DNA from: an uncultured archaeon
GTDB taxonomy: Archaea > Asgardarchaeota > Thorarchaeia > Thorarchaeales > Thorarchaeaceae
Assembly: GCA_964458565.1 (NCBI GenBank)
Contig: CAYWJO010000018.1
Span: 1 to 58,051 of the forward strand
Direction: 5' to 3'
Length of the DNA: 58,051 nucleotides
A program made the position numbers and the translations under genes. Shown here one piece after another: positions 2,509 to 12,988 of the stretch. Below the pieces are notes generated by a model. It was given only the letters and a program-made list of their open reading frames with translations. It was not told the DNA's origin and made no database searches. Position 1 is the stretch's first letter. The number at the start of each line of letters is the position of its first letter.

Positions 2509-3588
2509 ATGACAGAAATGAAAGTGGCTTTAATCTCCGGACTCGAATCTACAATGGTTGACGATGCGAGGGAAATTTATGCAATACTTAGCACTTCAGG
2601 TGCTGATATTGAACTAGAAGAGAAATTAGCCAAATCATTGAAGAAGTCTGGTACGTCAATGAAGCGACTGAGTTCAGATGTAATCCTAGTTGTCGGATCC
2701 GATAGAGTACTGCTTGATACATTCCTAAAAAGGGGGCAATCGGATACACCCATATTGCCAATCTCCTCAAAGGGTCAACCAGATTTCTTATTCGATATCA
2801 CCATTCCATCATTCGAGAGCGTCATAAATGACTTAATTGATCGTAAATGGTCAGAAGATAGGAGAATGCGTTTAGAAGCTAACATTGACGGTAGTAAATC
2901 TCCACCTATTTTGAATGATATAGCAATATTCGCTCGGCGTAGCGCGACTCTGATTCGCTATTCACTACATATAGATGGTGAGAGTTTTTGGAAAGATGGA
3001 AGTGATGGTCTGATCATATCAACTCCAACAGGCAGTACAGCTTATTCAATGAGTGTTGGAGGACCTGTAGTATTAAATCCAGCAGAAGTCATATCATTGA
3101 TCCCAGTAAACAGTGTAAATCCAGCTCAGAGACCTATGATTTTGCCTGACAGTATGGAGATAGAAATTAGAGACCTATCAAGTGCAGTAGCGATTGAAGC
3201 AGTCTTTGATGGCCAAATTCGAAAGAAAGTAGATGGTGGACCTGTGTTAATTCGTAGGTCCGAATGTGATGCAATATTTGTGAAATTCTCTGAAGAAAAA
3301 ATTGCTGCCTTGCGAGGGAAGCTTCAAAGAAAAACAGAGGAATTCGAAGACTTGGCTCATGAACTCCCACCAAGTGCCAAACTAGTGTTAAAAGTGCTGG
3401 AATATGAAGATCAACTAACCCAGAAAGAGATTATAGAAGAAACAATGCTACCTCCAAGAACAGTGAGATACGCACTATCATTGTTAATATCAGAGGGTTT
3501 TGTTCAGAAACGAGTATCATTACGAGATAGTAGACAGGGACTCTATCGTGTTACAAAGAAAATGAAGAAGAAATCCCCAAAAACATAA
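2509..3588 (+). CDS. NAD+ kinase-family domain fused to C-terminal winged HTH
   Basis: LNDIAI and DGLIISTPTGSTAYSMSVGGP; GGDG motif altered to GSDR; C-terminal LPPSAKLVLKVLE...LPPRTVRYALSLL...SLRDSRQGLY wHTH. Confidence 0.88.
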   Translation: MTEMKVALISGLESTMVDDAREIYAILSTSGADIELEEKLAKSLKKSGTSMKRLSSDVILVVGSDRVLLDTFLKRGQSDTPILPISSKGQPDFLFDITIPSFESVINDLIDRKWSEDRRMRLEANIDGSKSPPILNDIAIFARRSATLIRYSLHIDGESFWKDGSDGLIISTPTGSTAYSMSVGGPVVLNPAEVISLIPVNSVNPAQRPMILPDSMEIEIRDLSSAVAIEAVFDGQIRKKVDGGPVLIRRSECDAIFVKFSEEKIAALRGKLQRKTEEFEDLAHELPPSAKLVLKVLEYEDQLTQKEIIEETMLPPRTVRYALSLLISEGFVQKRVSLRDSRQGLYRVTKKMKKKSPKT

Positions 3589-3599
3589 TGTGATGACAA

Positions 3600-5747
3600 A
3601 TGACGATTCCAATAAAGAAGCTACCGGGTAAGTATCCTACAAAACTTCAACGCTTGATTGACCAAGAATATGAGACTGTTGAGAGGATGATGCAGGGGAA
3701 GGGGATTGAGGACGAGGAGAAAGATTTCTTTGGGTATTCGAAGGATCTTTTCGCATTTGAAATAGTTCGTGCCAATAATATTGATGCATCCGGATTTGCA
3801 AGAGCTTCTGAAGTACACGCTCTTTTAATGAAGATGTTCAGAGACGTTCTAGAAGAGATTGAAACGAATTCTTTGTTGGAGTGCATGACATTATGCGTTT
3901 ACGGATATGTTTTGAATAATTACATTGATGAAGATGTAAGGTATCTGTATCGATATTCACTAAATCAAGTGAGAGATCACGGTGAATTAGAACGATGGCT
4001 TCGACGCGCTATCACATTCATATCATCAATTGAAGAACAAAGTCCGAAAGACATATTGAATAGAATTAGGCATTGGTTGGGATTTTTCGGAGCACCTCTT
4101 CACAATCCGAAAGGATTCACGGAATTTTCTCAAGAACTAGGCATAGATTTGGATCCAATTCTAGAAGAGGAGAATTTCAAACTTGTCGATACGCTTCGAA
4201 GGCATTCACAATATCTCAATGAAGCTGTGATAGGTAGAAATTATGATGATATCTGGAACGCCACTAAAGATTGGTTGCCTGATGTCCTATCTTCTGAAAT
4301 CCTCAGCATATTTAGAAAACAGGTATACCAAGAGTCTCAGAATAAGATTGACAGTGACTCAACTGTAGAAGAATCTTACAAATCAGTGAAGAAGATATTT
4401 GAGAGAGTTGGGTTCAGAAGTCAGGACCGGACTACGCTACCTGTCAGACTTCAGGAGTTGGAATCACCACCAATTGGAGAAGCCATTGATCCCGTTGTAT
4501 TTGAGATGATTCCCCAGAAACTTCGAAGGGACCTCTTACCTGCAGTAGCTTATTATAGACCTACGAAGACCATTGAGATACATTTTCTTGGGGGACGAAT
4601 AATAGGCCGTAGTGGTATTCTAATTAAGACAGACACAGGAGGTATTCTTCTTGATTATGGCTTGTCAGTAGCAAATCAGAGAATACCTGAGTGGATTCCG
4701 GAATTAGAAATGATAGACACAGTTTTGATATCTCATTCACATCTTGACCATATTGGTGGATTGCCTGTACTCTATGAGAAATATGAGGGAAAGTGGTGTT
4801 CTACATCAGCAACCGGAGTAATAACTAAGGCTTTACTTGATGATGCAATAAAAATTGGTACACCGGCACTACCTAGAAGAAGAGATAGGACTGACTTGAT
4901 TTCAAGATTTAAGCAGGATAATATCGATAAAGTCGCTAAGAATCACGTGAGATTAGAAATTGGTAAGAGCAGTGAGGTAGGCCCTGGAATTGTTGTGACA
5001 CCTATCGATGCAGCTCACATTCCTGGTAGTGTGTCGTATCTAATCGATATTGAGGGAAAGAGGATTCTCTATACTGGAGATTTTAATTTAGATAAATCAG
5101 TACTATTTCCTGGAGCAACTCTACCAACAGATTCGGATGTTGTAATTTTTGATGGAACATATTGGGACAGAGCGGATTTTGATAGAACTAAGGTGTATCA
5201 GCAGATATCAAGTGTGATTGAAAAACATGGACCTGTTATCATTCCTTCCTTTGCGGTTGGCCGAAGTCAAGAGATACTTGTAATGTTAGATGAATTAGGC
5301 ATTACCAGGAATAGGAATGTTATGGTTGCGGGAATGGCTGAGCAAGTTACTAAATTGGTTGGAATATCTGGTAATTGGCAAGGAATGAAGAAAAATAAGG
5401 TGGTATTGGATAAACAAGATGTATTAGTTGCAGGAGGTGGGATGCTAGGAGGCGGACTTGCTAGACACCATTTCAAGGAGCAAAGAGCGAATCCAAAAGC
5501 TGCAATCATTCCATGTGGATACCTAGCACCACGAACACCGGGATGGAATTTAGTTAACGGATATGAACCGCATGATTGTACTGTTTCATATGCACGACTA
5601 AGTGCTCATTCCTCATCCGGAAATCTACAGGAGTATATCAGGTCGTGCAAGGGTAAGAAAGTAATAGTACATACTCCACTGACACAGGCTCCTAAAGGTG
5701 TGATAATGCCAGGTTTTGCTGAGAGATTAATTATCCCTGTCAAATAG
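3600..5747 (+). CDS. Metallo-beta-lactamase/beta-CASP ribonuclease (aCPSF-like) with long unassigned N-terminal domain
   Basis: LLDYG, HSHLDH, AHIPGS, YTGD, PSFAVGRSQE and LSAHSS motifs. Confidence 0.85.
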   Translation: MTIPIKKLPGKYPTKLQRLIDQEYETVERMMQGKGIEDEEKDFFGYSKDLFAFEIVRANNIDASGFARASEVHALLMKMFRDVLEEIETNSLLECMTLCVYGYVLNNYIDEDVRYLYRYSLNQVRDHGELERWLRRAITFISSIEEQSPKDILNRIRHWLGFFGAPLHNPKGFTEFSQELGIDLDPILEEENFKLVDTLRRHSQYLNEAVIGRNYDDIWNATKDWLPDVLSSEILSIFRKQVYQESQNKIDSDSTVEESYKSVKKIFERVGFRSQDRTTLPVRLQELESPPIGEAIDPVVFEMIPQKLRRDLLPAVAYYRPTKTIEIHFLGGRIIGRSGILIKTDTGGILLDYGLSVANQRIPEWIPELEMIDTVLISHSHLDHIGGLPVLYEKYEGKWCSTSATGVITKALLDDAIKIGTPALPRRRDRTDLISRFKQDNIDKVAKNHVRLEIGKSSEVGPGIVVTPIDAAHIPGSVSYLIDIEGKRILYTGDFNLDKSVLFPGATLPTDSDVVIFDGTYWDRADFDRTKVYQQISSVIEKHGPVIIPSFAVGRSQEILVMLDELGITRNRNVMVAGMAEQVTKLVGISGNWQGMKKNKVVLDKQDVLVAGGGMLGGGLARHHFKEQRANPKAAIIPCGYLAPRTPGWNLVNGYEPHDCTVSYARLSAHSSSGNLQEYIRSCKGKKVIVHTPLTQAPKGVIMPGFAERLIIPVK

Positions 5748-5752
5748 TAACC

Positions 5753-7699
5753 CTATGCAACCACTTCAAGCACACCATCAAGGACTAGTTTCTGTGCAAC
5801 AAATCGCATAGCTTGAATACTAATGCTAGGAATCTTTCTAACGACTTCTTCAAGAGAGAGTGTTCCATCACAATAATTCACAAATCGTACGACTGGGTCT
5901 CCATATGCCTTACGTGTATCAGCATCCACCTCTCCTATTTTTTTGAGGTGAATGACAGGTGTAATTTCGACCTTGAAATCTAACCAACCATAACGGTTCA
6001 TGATCTGCAAACAACCAATGACAGACTCCCGGGGTAAATCAAGAGCTCTAACCAACCCACCTACACTCATATTGTTCTCAATAGCCATTTTGACTTCAAC
6101 TATCGCTTTCCCTACATCACGATTAACAAATGGCAACGGTCGGCCAGCTTCCCTTTGACGAATTGTATAGTCTAAACTAACAGGACGTAATGGGAGCTTA
6201 GATAGCACACCAAAGACAGATGGTTCGAAGATACTAGGTTCACCATCCCAATCATCCCAGATATCAGCGAACATTTGTTCCATGTCAACGAGTATAGAGC
6301 TCATTATCTGGCGTTGATGCTCTTCATTACTATCATTAGATACAATCAATGCCAATACAAAATGACTTGTCTTTTCAACAAGTACTAAATTGCCTTCATG
6401 TTCTATTGTTTCTAGTGCATCAGTACTATCGGATGAACCATCCTGTTCTGCATCAATTCCACCAAAGGAGTCAAGTGCAGAAATCAGAGATGTGACAGAA
6501 TTAATGTCAATTGATTCATCTTGATATTGAAGATAGTACGAAACATCGAAGAGCCCAGGTTTTTGAATGATAAGTGCTAGATGAAGTACTTTGGAAATAT
6601 CAACTAGTTCCTTGGATGTATCTAGTGAATCTGCAGTTGGATCTATGTCAGCAAGCGATTCGTATTCCAACTCCGTCGTTGTGCCACCAGGATTTTGAGA
6701 GAACGTAGTTTCACTTGTTGTCGCACTTTCTTCATAAGGCACATCAATGAAACCAGTTTCAGTGATGTCACGGACTTTATCTTGAGCCCTGTCAATATCC
6801 TCAGTTTTTCTACGTACCGTTATCATATCAGATATTGGGATATCAGGCAGCTGAACTCCAACAGATTTAGATGCTACTTCCAACATCAGTCGGATGAACT
6901 CATCACGTCTACTTTTGTCTGTCGCAACCATAGCAAAAGTTGGTGCTCCTAACAATCGTTGGATTTTTTCACCTTTCATAGATTCAGGTAAGTCTTGTTT
7001 ATTAGCTATAATGAATAATGGAACTGCTGGAGCTTCCTTCTTAATATTTCTCAATAACGTTTTTGTCTGCATCACATTTCTAAAACTTGAATCAGTAATC
7101 AGGAAGATTACATCAGTTCCTTGGAAATAGAATGACCAGAGATCTTGGAAAACAGCCTGTCCCGCAAAATCCCAAATCGTCACCAAGAATGTACCAAATT
7201 GAATTGTTTCGCTAGAATCAACTGCTACATTGATAGTTGGCACATATCCACCAGGCGCAGGATCCCTTCCAAAGAGGAGTCTTAACAAAGTACTCTTGCC
7301 AACACCTCCACTTCCTACAAAAGATATTTTGAATCTAGTAAAAATCAATTCACCAAGGATGTCCTGTAGGTTATCTCGGATGTACCCAATACTGTTTCCT
7401 CTAAGTGCTGTAGCGATACGAGAAGCGCCTTCACGGACCTTGGATTTTATGGTTCGGTCTTCATCACGTCCATCAGTGACAAAAAGCAATACCAATTCAT
7501 CACTGATATCGCCATGGAATACCTTATGATTACCAACGAAAACTGGTGTGTCTTTTGCTAAACCCTCTGTATTGTGTAAATCTCTATAACCAGCCAAAAA
7601 TTCAATAACATCTGGATCGAGGAAGTCAATCTTCCAGAAACGAGTTCTTGCCACGATGTTGCCATCATGCGTTTCGATAATCATAACGTTATGAATCAC
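5753..7699 (-). CDS. Multidomain small GTPase: longin-like + Arf/Rab-like GTPase + longin + tandem wHTH
   Basis: G1 GSGGVGKS, G2 PTI, G3 WDFAGQ, G4 NKQD; longin-like LISALDSF...IEHEGNLVLVEK...WDG; two wHTH-like C-terminal repeats. Confidence 0.88.
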   Translation of the reverse strand: MIHNVMIIETHDGNIVARTRFWKIDFLDPDVIEFLAGYRDLHNTEGLAKDTPVFVGNHKVFHGDISDELVLLFVTDGRDEDRTIKSKVREGASRIATALRGNSIGYIRDNLQDILGELIFTRFKISFVGSGGVGKSTLLRLLFGRDPAPGGYVPTINVAVDSSETIQFGTFLVTIWDFAGQAVFQDLWSFYFQGTDVIFLITDSSFRNVMQTKTLLRNIKKEAPAVPLFIIANKQDLPESMKGEKIQRLLGAPTFAMVATDKSRRDEFIRLMLEVASKSVGVQLPDIPISDMITVRRKTEDIDRAQDKVRDITETGFIDVPYEESATTSETTFSQNPGGTTTELEYESLADIDPTADSLDTSKELVDISKVLHLALIIQKPGLFDVSYYLQYQDESIDINSVTSLISALDSFGGIDAEQDGSSDSTDALETIEHEGNLVLVEKTSHFVLALIVSNDSNEEHQRQIMSSILVDMEQMFADIWDDWDGEPSIFEPSVFGVLSKLPLRPVSLDYTIRQREAGRPLPFVNRDVGKAIVEVKMAIENNMSVGGLVRALDLPRESVIGCLQIMNRYGWLDFKVEITPVIHLKKIGEVDADTRKAYGDPVVRFVNYCDGTLSLEEVVRKIPSISIQAMRFVAQKLVLDGVLEVVA

Positions 7700-7789
7700 T
7701 AATTGTCACACTCAAATTTGGACTGAGTTCTATTTCTCAATGTATATTCGCTGTTACAAATCTGCTAAGAAGGTTGTGCTGATGAACTA

Positions 7790-9430
7790 TTACTCACGAA
7801 TACTAATTATATTTTGTCTTAGGAGTTCAGTTAATACCATGATAACGACGGAAAGATCGATACTTGCTTTATATGCAATCTGGTCAATTGATTGATTTCC
7901 ATCTATTAATTCAAAAAGTTCATCCAATCCGGAATATATTCGCTTTAATTCATTAGTGAGTTCACGCAATCGAATTGGTATGTCATTCTTTTCCAGTACA
8001 AGAGATACGGTAATATATCCGAGAAGTTCAAGCAGATGAAGCGCACCTAGCAACAATCCTGACGATTCACCTTCAATTAAATTATCCAGTCGCGTTTTCT
8101 CTTCGATGGTATTCCATACGGTATGCATGAATTCTCTCACAAGAGGAATTGAGAAACGTGCCCATTCAGGTTCACTTTGTTTTATGGGAGTATAGTGCTT
8201 TGGCCAAAATTTAGGAGGAAAGGTTGCTAGGAGTTTCAATGTGAATGCAGGAGAGTTATAGAGGTCTTCTGAGTCCATCAATTGATTTGGAGGATCCTCT
8301 AAATATAGTGCAGGTAATGAACCAAATTTTTCCCTTATTTGTTCAATATCTTCATCAGTTCCTGTGACCATGGTAAAAAGAAGATTCTCTTTTTCGATCA
8401 CGGCATATTTCAGCTCACCAGTTTGAACAACTGAAGTTTCGTCTGATCCTAAAGGCTCAATTTTGAACATTGAGATAGCAGCTAACAGATTTGGAGCTCT
8501 TTCTAGAATTTTGGATTTCTCATGGTAATAGAATGAATATCTAGGTTCACCAAGATATTTATCGATAACAAAGAACGCTTGTAATCCGGAGGAGGAACTT
8601 TCAATAGACGTAGGAGTTTTAGATAGTCCATCAATCTTTAATCTCTTTTCTGCTAGTTCAGGATGCATATCGATGTGTCCTGTGACTGCTAAAATAGAGA
8701 GAGTGAGGTATGATGGTGAAACTTCAACAGAATCACACAATATCAAATCATAATTCATTTCATACTCTCTAGCTAGCTCTAAATCTTCATCAGTTTCAGG
8801 CAGAACAACAATCATTGAGATAGAATTCTTCCTCAGGAATTCAATTGCTTGTATTAGTAAATTTGATGCAATTTCGGAGGAAATCACCATTACCACAATA
8901 TCTGATGATTTCAAAACATCCTCTGCATGTGAAATATCAGAATACGGGGCTCTGATGAAAAATGTTGAATATGGCCCAACATTGAAAGCATCAAGATTAT
9001 CGCACAATCTGTTTATTGATTTTATAGATTGCAGTGATTTGGAGGTATAGATGAAACAGATTTTTCTCCTCTTGCGTAATTCACGTTCGACAAGATGTGT
9101 AAATAGCTCACGTGCAGGGCGTTGCCCCATTTTTTCGACTCTTTCGCGATAGGTACTTGCTAAATTATTTGCAAGTTGTTTATTCTCCTCAAGATACCCA
9201 TCCTCTGGATAACACACCAAAATAACGAATTCCTCAACACGACAAATGAGAACGCTTTCTTGATTGTGTTCAATCTCAATACATGAATCGGATATGGCAT
9301 CGCCCAATGTTTCAAAGAAGGCATTAGCTATATTCTCTAAATCAGTATCATCGGTGGGCTCCACATGGAAAGAGTGAGAAACCAGTGTTTTGTAACTTCT
9401 GATATCGTAGAGAACTGCCTGTCGTATCAC
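7790..9430 (-). CDS. Paralog of the downstream GTPase with degenerate G-domain (pseudo-GTPase) + longin + tandem wHTH
   Basis: Colinear similarity (KICFI~KISFV, KSSDIVVMVI~QGTDVIFLIT, LLAAISMF~LISALDSF, IDGNQSIDQI~CDGTLSLEEV); no P-loop or NKxD; likely GTG start 9430 after GAGG. Confidence 0.72.
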   Translation of the reverse strand: MIRQAVLYDIRSYKTLVSHSFHVEPTDDTDLENIANAFFETLGDAISDSCIEIEHNQESVLICRVEEFVILVCYPEDGYLEENKQLANNLASTYRERVEKMGQRPARELFTHLVERELRKRRKICFIYTSKSLQSIKSINRLCDNLDAFNVGPYSTFFIRAPYSDISHAEDVLKSSDIVVMVISSEIASNLLIQAIEFLRKNSISMIVVLPETDEDLELAREYEMNYDLILCDSVEVSPSYLTLSILAVTGHIDMHPELAEKRLKIDGLSKTPTSIESSSSGLQAFFVIDKYLGEPRYSFYYHEKSKILERAPNLLAAISMFKIEPLGSDETSVVQTGELKYAVIEKENLLFTMVTGTDEDIEQIREKFGSLPALYLEDPPNQLMDSEDLYNSPAFTLKLLATFPPKFWPKHYTPIKQSEPEWARFSIPLVREFMHTVWNTIEEKTRLDNLIEGESSGLLLGALHLLELLGYITVSLVLEKNDIPIRLRELTNELKRIYSGLDELFELIDGNQSIDQIAYKASIDLSVVIMVLTELLRQNIISIRE

Positions 9431-9478
9431 GTACTCAACCTCAGATTGAATCCTACAGTTGAAACCCACATTGCTAAA

Positions 9479-10711
9479 TCAGTGTTGTTCGGCTCTATGT
9501 CTGATGAAGGTATCAAATGAGATTGCACCTCGCATCAATAACTGATAATATGATTCTAACCGTTCCGGATTGTAGAGAGTCTGATGTTCACCCATATTAT
9601 GGTCAAGAGGTGGCAAATCTGATATAGCTTCCCGAACAGTAATCGGAGGTGGCAAATCTGAATTTATCAGTTTTATTTGTTGATGTTTCCTTGTATAGAC
9701 AACACTTGAAAAGATTGGTTCAGGTTTAGGAATATCGCATCCATCTCTATTTGACAGGATAAATACTCTACGACGTCTCTGAGGAACACCAAATTCTTCT
9801 GCATGAAGTGAAAATATTTCAGTTGTGTATCCAAGAGTACTCAACCGATCTTTCAATGACTCAAGAATTTCACCTTTATTCATCCATTTGATGCCTAAAA
9901 CATTTTCAATTACCAACCACTCAGGTTGAAAGAGTTCCGCAAAATCATACATCATATAGACGAGCGAATTTCGTTCATCACTAGTATTCCAATGACCAGC
10001 TGTTGAGAATCCTTGGCAAGGAGGACCTCCAGCAAGCAAATTTAATGTTTGGCCTTTCAACCTTGTTTCAATTTCTTCACACAGAGTCTGATAGTCAATT
10101 GGATTGAGTATATCCAAGTTCAGGACAGTTGTATCTTCGTGGTTCTGATCATAGCTTTCACACATATGATGATTCAAATCAGTAGCCAAGACAATATCAT
10201 GACCTGCTTGCTTTAATCCCTCAGAGAGTCCTCCAGCACCTGCAAATAGGTCAATAACATTACCGGAAGGCAAGATTTTACCCAATGCTCGTGATAGCAA
10301 TGGAGGAACTGCATTGCCTACTTGTTTGTACATTGATGAGGTACTGCCAAGAAAACGATAATCATCAGTGAATGACTGAAGTCTAGCTGCTTCTCTTATT
10401 GATATTAGCCGATTCTGGTCTGGATGAATGAATGTTCCATTACCAGGTCTATTGAAGTACGTGTTAATTGTATAAGCAGGAAGGTCATATTTCATCCGAC
10501 CGTAGTATGTTGTACGTCCTCCAGATTCTCGAATTTTCATAACTCTTTTTGACTTCAATGCGGTTTTTTCAGGAATATCTTTCCAGTTTCCTCCGGGAGG
10601 TATTGAATAGACCATTTCGAGATCAAGATCACTCAATTTAGCACAAACATGATTATAGAGTGGACTATCCAAATCTGCGTCCTGTATCTGGGTTTCTGAA
10701 GAGAGAAGCAT
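9479..10711 (-). CDS. Circularly permuted DNA (cytosine-5)-methyltransferase
   Basis: TRD and motifs IX (REAARLQSF) and X (KQVGNAVPP) precede motif I (DLFAGAGG), IV (GGPPCQGFS), VI (ENV) and VIII (QRRRR). Confidence 0.93.
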   Translation of the reverse strand: MLLSSETQIQDADLDSPLYNHVCAKLSDLDLEMVYSIPPGGNWKDIPEKTALKSKRVMKIRESGGRTTYYGRMKYDLPAYTINTYFNRPGNGTFIHPDQNRLISIREAARLQSFTDDYRFLGSTSSMYKQVGNAVPPLLSRALGKILPSGNVIDLFAGAGGLSEGLKQAGHDIVLATDLNHHMCESYDQNHEDTTVLNLDILNPIDYQTLCEEIETRLKGQTLNLLAGGPPCQGFSTAGHWNTSDERNSLVYMMYDFAELFQPEWLVIENVLGIKWMNKGEILESLKDRLSTLGYTTEIFSLHAEEFGVPQRRRRVFILSNRDGCDIPKPEPIFSSVVYTRKHQQIKLINSDLPPPITVREAISDLPPLDHNMGEHQTLYNPERLESYYQLLMRGAISFDTFIRHRAEQH

Positions 10712-10765
10712 CCTGTTAATACGAATAAGAAAACGATAAGAAAGCGTGTATTCTATAACTAATGT

Positions 10766-12988
10766 TTACTGTAGGTTATTCATCTCCTCCAGAATCAGTT
10801 CTTGATCTGGTTTTGGAGTTCCTCTAGATTGTAGAATTTCAAAGATACCATCAATATCAACATTGTATAAATAGAAAACTCTGGCATCGATTAAAGGTGA
10901 TACTTCTGTACTCCCCTTTGAAATACTCTGAACAAGAAGACTAACTTCCTTCACGAGATTTTGGTTATCCGGATTAATCTTTGAAGGATTCAATACAGGC
11001 ATTAATGAAAGCTCTCTATTGGAAACATGATTATTGGAATTACCTAGATGGAATCTCCAATTCATCAATTCCGAGTTGAGTACACCGAGAATAAAATCAA
11101 GTGAGTCATCACTCGCTTCTCTTTCTATCATATAATTACATGAATTTGCTAGAACCATCCTAGGTTGAATTCGGGTAAACTTTAACCTCCATCTCTGATT
11201 TCGATTGGATATTTGTTGACAGGCGAGTCTCTTCTCGTTTATATGTGCTATTCGATTCGAGTTATGTTTCGATAATCTAAAAGATTCCAAATCAACATAT
11301 CTGAAATTGGAATCTGGTCTAAGTTGATATCTACTGATATCAGATCCCCGTATTAGAGGAAAGGAAGTATCAGTCTTAGTCAGAAATCGTTTGTCAAGTG
11401 TTAGGTCGAATTCACCTCTCCAATTCTCTAACTGTTGGTTAAGATGATGTTCCGGATTTGCATGAATTTGCTTCAGAATTCTAAGTTCGTTTTCATTAAC
11501 ACAGGGGATGACATGAGACCTTCCCATAGTCTGAGTTATATCGTCAAAATGAATGGTGACAGGATTCTTTTTTGATACAATCGAATCAAGAGAATATCTT
11601 AAATCAAAAGATGATGAAGTTCCACCTCGTTCAATGATCACAATACAAACTGACTGAGTAATATGCGGAAAGAGACGCGCAGATTCCGAAAATTCATTAA
11701 TAGATAGTATTCTATTTGAGGTCAGAAGATGGGTTCTGATTTTTGAAGCTGATATATCACCAAGTAAAGAAGATGGAACTACAAAACCAATGCGGGCATT
11801 CTCCGATGCAACCTGAAGAGCTCGTTCAATGAATAAACGGTATGTGTCTATTGTATAGTAATTCCCAAGATTGTACTCTCCAGATTTTCGAAAATATGTC
11901 ACTTCTTCATTCAGAATTTCTTTATGATTCTCAAATTCCGAAAACACTATATTTCTTTGGCCCTGTTCTAGCCTATTTCTGACAAATTCAGCAAAATTAG
12001 ATTTAAGTCTATTATAAGGAGGATTCATTAAGACTATGTCAAATCCTGAACCCTCAGGTGGTAAGATATCAGGATATGCATCGGTCCACTCAAACGCATC
12101 ACTCAGACTTCTATTAATAAAGTAACTTGAAAGATCCTTAGAACCACAGATTCCTTTCAGAGATATCAATGAATTTCCTTTTCTTAAATCTAAACATCTG
12201 CTAGAAAACTCCGAGTAGCTTGTTGCGAGTTCATATAGGAGAGAAACTCTAGCAATCTCCAAAGCGGCGGAATCTAAATCAATTCCATAGAGATAACCAG
12301 CAGGTGTTGCATCTGATCCAAGTAAATACGAATCTTCTAGGTCACACTCTAATAACCCACAATCAGTGCATGTATTTAGAATTTTATCCCACCTTCTGTG
12401 AATTACTCTGATTGCAGAGAGAAGGAATGTACCAGGACCACATGCTGGGTCGAGAATCCGTAGATTTGTTATTTTCCGGAGGCTTTCAACTCCATTTCTT
12501 CGAATGTCCCTAATGCATGATTCAATTTTGGGACCAAGTGTCGATTCAGTGATAGTATCAGCGAGGTGTATCGGGGTATACACAGATCCTGTAACTCTTC
12601 GAGATAGCGATGTAAGACCCCTAGAGGAGATTGCATGAGAACCATACGAATGAATCCAACTTAATATTTCATTGAGATTTCGTGATGTACAATTTTTCAG
12701 ATACTGGGGTTCTGAAACCTTCTTAACAAGTTGACATGCATTGTCAAGTATAGGTTTGGATTCGATTTGGTTTTGAATACCAAGCGGAGAGAGCTTTGTG
12801 AAGATTTGATTGTCAGAAAAGAGATGTTGAATCCTTTTTATTATTGGAGCAATAGCAATATTTAGTGAGGTAATACGAGATATCTCAGCAATTTCCAAAG
12901 GTGAATAGTCAGTTCCTAATTCTTCTAGAGATACAGATTGGACTTCGGATAAAATATTCCAAGCAATATCACTAGGATTTATTGACAA
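10766..12988 (-). CDS. N6-adenine DNA methyltransferase, Alw26I/Eco31I/Esp3I-like
   Basis: GSVYTP, LDPACGPG, NPPY; C-terminal QQISN...RLKF, LANSCNY, LNSELMNWRF, SNNHV. Confidence 0.88.
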   Translation of the reverse strand: MSINPSDIAWNILSEVQSVSLEELGTDYSPLEIAEISRITSLNIAIAPIIKRIQHLFSDNQIFTKLSPLGIQNQIESKPILDNACQLVKKVSEPQYLKNCTSRNLNEILSWIHSYGSHAISSRGLTSLSRRVTGSVYTPIHLADTITESTLGPKIESCIRDIRRNGVESLRKITNLRILDPACGPGTFLLSAIRVIHRRWDKILNTCTDCGLLECDLEDSYLLGSDATPAGYLYGIDLDSAALEIARVSLLYELATSYSEFSSRCLDLRKGNSLISLKGICGSKDLSSYFINRSLSDAFEWTDAYPDILPPEGSGFDIVLMNPPYNRLKSNFAEFVRNRLEQGQRNIVFSEFENHKEILNEEVTYFRKSGEYNLGNYYTIDTYRLFIERALQVASENARIGFVVPSSLLGDISASKIRTHLLTSNRILSINEFSESARLFPHITQSVCIVIIERGGTSSSFDLRYSLDSIVSKKNPVTIHFDDITQTMGRSHVIPCVNENELRILKQIHANPEHHLNQQLENWRGEFDLTLDKRFLTKTDTSFPLIRGSDISRYQLRPDSNFRYVDLESFRLSKHNSNRIAHINEKRLACQQISNRNQRWRLKFTRIQPRMVLANSCNYMIEREASDDSLDFILGVLNSELMNWRFHLGNSNNHVSNRELSLMPVLNPSKINPDNQNLVKEVSLLVQSISKGSTEVSPLIDARVFYLYNVDIDGIFEILQSRGTPKPDQELILEEMNNLQ

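Follow-up and report, generated by a model that had tools for sequence, protein, structure and literature searches.

A conserved pairing of an Arf-like GTPase with its full-length pseudo-GTPase paralogue in Thorarchaeia, both built of longin and winged-helix domains

The Rag/Gtr GTPases (RagA/B with RagC/D, Gtr1 with Gtr2) are paralogous heterodimers in which both subunits bind GTP. Another paralogous pair, NPRL2 and NPRL3 (Npr2 and Npr3 in yeast), makes up the core of GATOR1/SEACIT and acts as the GTPase-activating protein (GAP) for RagA/Gtr1. Here we describe two adjacent genes of an uncultured archaeon of the family Thorarchaeaceae (Asgardarchaeota; class Thorarchaeia), one encoding an Arf-like GTPase and the other a full-length paralogue that has lost the nucleotide-binding motifs. 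They were found as two consecutive open reading frames (ORFs), 5753-7699 (648 amino acids, aa) and 7790-9469 (559 aa before correction of the start), on the minus strand of a stretch of 58,051 nucleotides which we call the window (contig CAYWJO010000018.1, positions 1 to 58,051). The host assembly, GCA_964458565.1, is 93% complete, with 93 contigs that total 3.73 Mb.

Rag-like GTPases occur in Asgard archaea, for example LokiRagO (PDB 8yl2), and for an operonic pair of Rag-like GTPases from a Lokiarchaeon a heterodimer with contact through the roadblock domains has been modelled (Tran et al. 2024, PMC10933270). The proteins described here differ from the Rag/Gtr GTPases in having an additional longin domain at the N-terminus and two winged helices as a tail, in the Arf-like nature of the G domain (with WDFAGQ and ANKQDLP) and in that one partner is without a nucleotide site, while their heterodimer is a proposal of ours. 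The defining architecture of NPRL2 and NPRL3 is a longin domain at the N-terminus with at least two winged helices after it (Levine et al. 2013, PMC3747258). The present pair likewise has a longin domain before winged helices, but this module is here fused behind a longin-GTPase unit and its template modelling (TM) scores to NPRL2/NPRL3 are low (0.16-0.36). Longin domains that act as GAPs carry a catalytic arginine finger and a GP motif, and a survey of them points to Asgard relatives (PMC12290439). The accessible part of the text of Liu et al. (bioRxiv 10.1101/2020.10.19.343400) describes Rag-family GTPases fused to longin domains in Asgard archaea, as well as a family with a longin domain and an NPRL2-type C-terminal domain in most Thor genomes. 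The genes of the window, and a stand-alone pair described below, probably belong to these groups, but that part of the text mentions neither an active GTPase that is paired with a dead paralogue nor a single chain containing both units.

The two genes encode collinear paralogues, each composed of an N-terminal longin domain (LD1), a G-fold, a linker, a second longin domain of the longin/roadblock type (LD2) and two winged helices. A preliminary description of this DNA, made from the sequence without database searches, had claimed one architecture for two adjacent co-oriented genes, and profile comparison of the two families bears this out. In a full-length profile-profile alignment (hhalign) the GTPase and pseudo-GTPase families matched with 96.7% probability (E-value, E, 4e-10) over 543 collinear columns. 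When the comparison was made domain by domain, the best partner was always the positional counterpart (LD1, E 1.6e-6; G/pseudo-G, 4e-4; LD2, 4.4e-4; winged-helix tail, 5.7e-12), whereas the twelve cross-family pairings off the diagonal all gave E 0.036 or worse. This is the pattern that a whole-gene duplication predicts.

The 648-aa protein has the G1 (GxxxxGK[ST]), G3 (DxxGQ) and G4 (NKxD) motifs of a Ras-superfamily small GTPase of the Arf-like kind, and GSGGVGKST, WDFAGQ and ANKQDLP, with DFAGQ and NKQD in them, are invariant in all 30 members of its family, so that the motifs G1 to G4 are retained as had been described. Pfam Arf matches residues 121-253 (E 6e-18, 65.3 bits against a cut-off of 22.3) and Arf1 is the best match among PDB sequences (E 4e-14). 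Roc and Ras of Pfam also match, whereas Gtr1_RagA lies far below these three and just over its threshold (22.9 bits against 22.0). The N-terminal amphipathic helix of Arf proper was not found, this end of the protein being a longin domain of 119 residues. As in Rag/Gtr, the G domain is followed by a C-terminal roadblock-type domain, and a fold search with the AlphaFold2 model of the protein returned only small GTPase (G-domain) and RagA/Rag matches. This model is mediocre (predicted local distance difference test, pLDDT, 61), the input alignment being too uniform, and its secondary structure gives five parts. Judged by its sequence, the G domain is Arf-like, and it appears to be Rag-like in architecture only. 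The constraint upon it is high: mean identity of the family members to the GTPase of the window is 90% in the G domain, 62-71% in the other folded domains and 27% in the linker. At the junction of LD1 and the G domain, R100 and R108 are invariant arginines and candidates for a GAP finger in cis.

For the 546-aa protein encoded upstream no Pfam match and no PDB sequence match was obtained. Clustering of its family at 50% leaves about 25 full-length representatives, and a Walker A motif is present in none of the 33 members considered. KICFIYTSKS aligns to the P-loop strand of the GTPase, FNVGPYSTFFIRAPYS to strand 3 and DxxG, and SDIVVMVIS to TDVIFLITD, while the slot of NKQD is taken by VVLPETD, for which the family has the conserved consensus VVPGSD. 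The loss of the P-loop, DxxG and NKxD noticed in the preliminary description is borne out, and that of Walker A holds for all 33 members. The G-domain-like fold that it had placed in the middle of the gene is also present, both in the G/pseudo-G profile match given above and in an AlphaFold2 model which, built on a deeper alignment, reached pLDDT 86 and shows a longin domain, a GTPase-like alpha/beta domain, a longin/roadblock domain and two winged-helix domains. With the fold and descent of a GTPase and without its nucleotide-binding motifs, this protein is a pseudo-GTPase. A feature search of a protein atlas with the pseudo-G domain alone gave no usable match.

The pseudo-G domain and LD2 of this protein also carry nearly invariant motifs that have no counterpart in the GTPase, namely GPY (on strand 3), VVPGSD..LE.AR, DMHPELA, GHQAFFV, APNxxAAIS and PPFTLKLLATLPP. 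These motifs suggest a conserved surface or a ligand site.

The pair is a feature of the class and not of one genome. A profile search found the pseudo-GTPase gene, as an open frame of full length, in 83 of the 87 Thorarchaeia genomes, including all 24 of high quality, and in all 17 genera, which supports selection on both copies. In at least 33 genomes a GTPase orthologue follows immediately downstream on the contig, in the same orientation, and order and strand are kept in at least 12 genera, so that the adjacency seen in the preliminary description is conserved across Thorarchaeia. In a distant relative (locus L001, on a 360-kb contig) the pseudo-GTPase gene, a spacer of 91 nucleotides (nt) and the GTPase gene are followed by a convergent beta-CASP gene and a gene for an NAD kinase fused to a winged helix-turn-helix (wHTH) domain. 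Between this genome and that of the window the GTPase orthologues are 60% identical, with a nearly identical G domain, and the pseudo-GTPase orthologues 35%, which means that the rates of change have been strongly asymmetric.

Of the genomes in which the pseudo-GTPase was not found, two (G021 and G024) lack both genes of the pair together. The absences in G011 and G066 are uninformative, the contigs being fragmented and the upstream flanks short (in G066 about 1.2 kb upstream of the GTPase gene). The absence in the single-contig genome G058 was dismissed, because about 100 consecutive N at the 5' end of its GTPase orthologue (L012, about 6000-6100), an assembly gap or masked stretch, sit exactly where the pseudo-GTPase gene would be expected.

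We propose that a multidomain small-GTPase switch protein (longin domain, Arf-like G domain, longin/roadblock domain and two winged helices) was duplicated as a whole gene. The downstream copy would have stayed a working GTPase under very strong constraint, and the upstream copy would have lost nucleotide binding and evolved faster, keeping its fold, its full length and a well-conserved LD2 and tail. The products may form a paralogous heterodimer joined through the longin/roadblock platforms, as in the Rag/Gtr, NPRL2-NPRL3 and MglB dimers. One subunit alone would then cycle between GTP and GDP, the dead subunit would be a fixed scaffold or regulator, a surface for docking would be offered by the tandem winged helices, and the longin and winged-helix parts might act in the manner of a GAP or of a factor for guanine nucleotide exchange (GEF). 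All solved relatives of the longin/roadblock domains that we found are dimeric platforms for a small GTPase, and those of Rag/Gtr, NPRL2/3 and Ragulator are paralogous heterodimers. Since, in addition, LD2 is the best conserved part of the dead twin and corresponds to the dimerisation domain of Rag, a heterodimer is favoured. By analogy with these systems, we consider a heterodimer of one cycling and one fixed subunit to be the most likely mode of action, and hold this with moderate confidence.

The winged-helix tails show a likeness to NPRL2. When all PDB sequences were searched with a profile made from 28 tail sequences, human NPRL2 ranked first, with the last winged helix aligned to NPRL2 171-236 (DVPV...ILPYIDGFRHIQKIS...LLYYGVV). 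This is the segment that the preliminary description had named; the resemblance stands as the best one in the PDB, but it is weak (E 0.041) and covers one winged helix only. It was followed by the longin domain of MON1 (E 0.09) and then by a MarR-family regulator and CodY. LD2 resembles in sequence the Fuz/MON1/HPS1 longin family (7 of the 28 sequences), and in both proteins it is followed by two winged helices, which is the architecture that defines NPRL2 and NPRL3. When the model of the pseudo-GTPase was searched with Foldseek, GATOR1/SEAC chains came out on top (E 2e-7 to 1e-4), interleaved with Gtr1/Gtr2 and RagA/RagC; the first were 9h4q_T (E 2e-7), 8adl_S, 9o5a_H, 9v0j_A/B, 7t3a_B and 7t3b_B/C, whose modelled lengths fit NPRL2 and NPRL3. 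The matches to NPRL2/NPRL3 had TM-scores of 0.16-0.24 and root-mean-square deviations of 11-14 Å, values that are to be expected when multidomain proteins match collinearly but not as rigid bodies. In a shape search of the ESM Atlas the first eukaryotic family was likewise an NPR2 cluster (TM 0.28/0.36). As to the GP motif of GAP longins, only loops resembling G-x-P were noticed, ahead of strand 2 of LD2 (KYLGEPRY here, with the family consensus TGEA).

Other results speak against a place in the NPRL2/NPRL3 families. Pfam NPR2 and NPR3 matched neither protein at E up to 1 nor any of the 28 tail sequences at E up to 10, and a search of the whole genome with NPR2 (PF06218) was negative at E up to 1. 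For the last winged helix there are also matches to generic archaeal DNA-binding wHTH families (HTH_47, TrmB, MarR) and, weakly, to DUF742. A word-index search with the tail profile returned fragments of the same families only and no NPRL2, and in VIA rigid-body alignments the NPRL chains were not among the 50 matches listed, all of them single-domain matches that barely covered the winged-helix tail. Membership of NPRL2/3 is weakened by the silence of Pfam NPR2, the E of 0.04 and the generic wHTH likeness. The module can be said to be built like NPRL2/3, and from sequence and model a kinship to GATOR1 is plausible. The label of a Rag/GATOR1-like pair used in the preliminary description is thus supported by the closest solved structures, which by Foldseek are Rag/Gtr and NPRL2/NPRL3, and not by Pfam NPR2 or by the Arf-like sequence of the G domain. 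That the module is a true NPRL2/NPRL3 homologue fused to its client GTPase, which would make the active/dead heterodimer an archaeal relative of the Rag-GATOR1 nutrient switch, is a possibility that we regard as rather doubtful.

The actinobacterial conservon (Cvn/Mfp), with a Ras-like GTPase, a Roadblock/LC7 protein, a DUF742 wHTH protein and a histidine kinase, has the same three kinds of part as the present pair, but there they are separate proteins whereas here they are fused, with no histidine kinase beside the pair. The conservon protein MfpD is, by the title of the paper on it (PMC9769811), said to be a GAP. It is a roadblock/LC7 protein, and the DUF742 protein MfpC has been reported as a GEF (PMC11343762). 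Among the 28 tail sequences three matched DUF742 (best E 0.003), always below the Pfam threshold, and no histidine kinase was found at the locus of the window or at L001. With DUF742 so far below its cut-off, the conservon is to be taken as an analogy of parts and not as a demonstrated relative.

Other explanations of the pair have to be considered beside the heterodimer. The two proteins may be independent paralogues, the GTPase acting alone or as a homodimer and the dead copy having a function of its own, in which case their adjacency would simply come from tandem duplication in a stable region. Several observations lean this way and weigh against the heterodimer. A 96%-complete genome of the sister family (G001, the only one of that family searched) contains a GTPase orthologue (E 1e-217) and no pseudo-GTPase anywhere, which means that the GTPase does not strictly need its twin and makes the "obligate" heterodimer of the preliminary description doubtful; the dead twin either arose within the main family or has disappeared from the sister family. 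In that genome a beta-CASP gene lies nearby downstream of the GTPase gene, with an ORF of 184 aa between them, and the upstream gene encodes an unrelated caspase/PPC/CUB protein. In L001, moreover, the conserved gene order extends downstream beyond the pair (beta-CASP, NAD kinase-wHTH, nadA), so that tandem origin and general synteny, and not functional coupling, may account for part of the adjacency, and one genus (g12) tolerates an insertion of about 2-3 kb between the two genes. On the other hand, the order and strand of the pair have been kept in so many genera while the upstream flank varies (DNA methylases in the window, other genes in L001), and the dimeric nature of every solved longin/roadblock relative found, together with the conservation of LD2 in the dead copy, is not what independence would lead one to expect. 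We consider independent paralogues a minority possibility.

The winged helices could instead bind DNA, with the G domain gating a GTP-controlled regulator, which would be compatible with a heterodimer. A stand-alone relative (P0178) reaches 26.9 bits with TrmB, whose cut-off is 25.6, family members also match HTH_47, HTH_24, ArsR, MarR and Rrf2, and the places of the MarR-family regulator and CodY behind NPRL2 and MON1 in the PDB search fit this idea as well. However, these wHTH matches are weak and generic and are all outranked by NPRL2, a protein not known to use its winged helices for DNA binding; a conserved target operon was not apparent and the remaining domains are all of GTPase-regulator folds, which leaves DNA binding unlikely. 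A different question is whether the middle domain of the 546-aa protein was ever a GTPase, or is another flavodoxin-like domain such as a CheY-type receiver. In rigid-body structure alignment CheY receivers came within about one Z unit of GTPases, so close that the fold alone leaves the matter unsettled, and it is the position in a collinear paralogue, together with the domain-only profile match, that tips the balance to a pseudo-GTPase. The domain occupies the place of the G domain, 130-138 residues could be aligned with GTPases against 115-121 with receivers, the pairings with other domains all gave E 0.047 or worse, and no Asp is conserved in the family where strand 3 ends. We find a receiver origin highly improbable and continue to favour the heterodimer of a GTPase with its pseudo-GTPase paralogue.

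The module of a longin domain and two winged helices is also found on its own. Contig C56 of the same genome carries genes of 282 and 280 aa that are 41% identical, and for both proteins a match to the C-terminal half of the pseudo-GTPase family was obtained with 96% probability. These genes (L004, C56 367-2050, minus strand) overlap by 8 nt and are placed between a DUF2797 gene and a convergent radical S-adenosyl-L-methionine (SAM) gene, and in another genus (g9, L015) the pair is syntenic together with both flanks. A MinD-type ATPase gene is next to the pair at neither of the two loci. A protein-atlas feature search with the stand-alone module gave archaeal hypothetical clusters only. By analogy, such a tandem pair of paralogues may be taken as a precedent for pairing of the module.

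Further paralogues have in common with the GTPase the N-terminal half only, with its longin domain and G domain. They are frames of 415-665 aa with E of about 1e-79 to 1e-96 to the GTPase profile (G011:C190, G021:C77, G024:C11, G066:C305, G001:C21). In one genome two adjacent frames of 302 and 382 aa (G031:C102:78482-80228) match the N-terminal half of the pseudo-GTPase profile. From these matches it seems that the N-terminal longin-G unit also travels alone, and sometimes in pairs.

The features of the locus are collected in Table 1. The GTG start of the GTPase gene at 7699 aligns with the MIHNV start of its orthologues. For the pseudo-GTPase gene, the GTG at 9430 aligns with the Met of the homologues and is also the coordinate given in the preliminary description; as the homologues begin there, the longer ORF from 9469 is probably spurious.

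Table 1. Coordinates of the paired genes, their domains and the spacer between them in the window
Feature	Position	Strand	Remarks
Active GTPase gene, 648 aa	5753..7699	-	LD1, Arf-like G domain, acidic linker, LD2, two winged helices
GTPase LD1, N-terminal longin, aa 1-119	7343..7699	-	beta-beta-alpha-beta-beta-beta-alpha-alpha; model secondary structure; LD1 vs LD1 profile
GTPase Arf-like G domain, aa 120-292	6824..7342	-	P-loop GSGGVGKST 7289-7315; DFAGQ 7157-7171; NKQD 6992-7003
GTPase linker, aa 293-369	6593..6823	-	rich in Asp, Glu, Ser, Thr; poorly conserved; pLDDT about 25, predicted disordered
GTPase LD2, longin/roadblock, aa 370-480	6260..6592	-	model and domain profile comparison
GTPase tail, aa 481-648	5756..6259	-	helical segment and two winged-helix domains, (I/C)DG motif in each
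Intergenic spacer, 90 nt	7700..7789	-	without any T run of 4 or more
Pseudo-GTPase gene, 546 aa, GTG start at 9430	7790..9430	-	start placed by homologue alignment
Pseudo-G domain of pseudo-GTPase	8624..9076	-	position and domain profile
LD2 of pseudo-GTPase	8288..8590	-	model
Pseudo-GTPase tail, model residues 383-547	7793..8287	-	helical segment and two winged helices; last one aligns to NPRL2 171-236

Two DNA methyltransferase genes are located directly upstream of the pseudo-GTPase gene (window 9479-12988, minus strand), one for a C5 methylase, with its Pfam match in two separate stretches, and one for an Eco57I/TaqI-type N6 methylase. As they are absent at the same place in L001, they look like an insertion. 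On the other side, on the plus strand (window 2509-5747), a beta-CASP/metallo-beta-lactamase gene (715 aa) converges with the GTPase gene and is accompanied by the gene for an NAD kinase-wHTH fusion (359 aa).

No paper on the pairing of an active and a dead GTPase was found, and a full-text search gave none containing both "pseudoGTPase" and "Asgard". New here are the conserved association of an active GTPase with a paralogue that is dead but of full length, and the joining of a longin-GTPase unit and an NPRL2-like module in one chain. In eukaryotes, nutrient signalling is under the control of Rag GTPases and of longin-based GAP complexes such as GATOR1, folliculin and C9orf72-SMCR8. If the twins do not interact, the genes described here would be one more lineage-specific multidomain GTPase family. 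As a small expressible system, the two-gene unit would allow tests of how longin platforms regulate GTPases and of how heterodimers with one dead subunit originate. Moreover, if the homology to NPRL2/3 is true, a GTPase, its longin regulator and a pseudo-enzyme partner would be contained in a unit of two genes that could be reconstituted in vitro.

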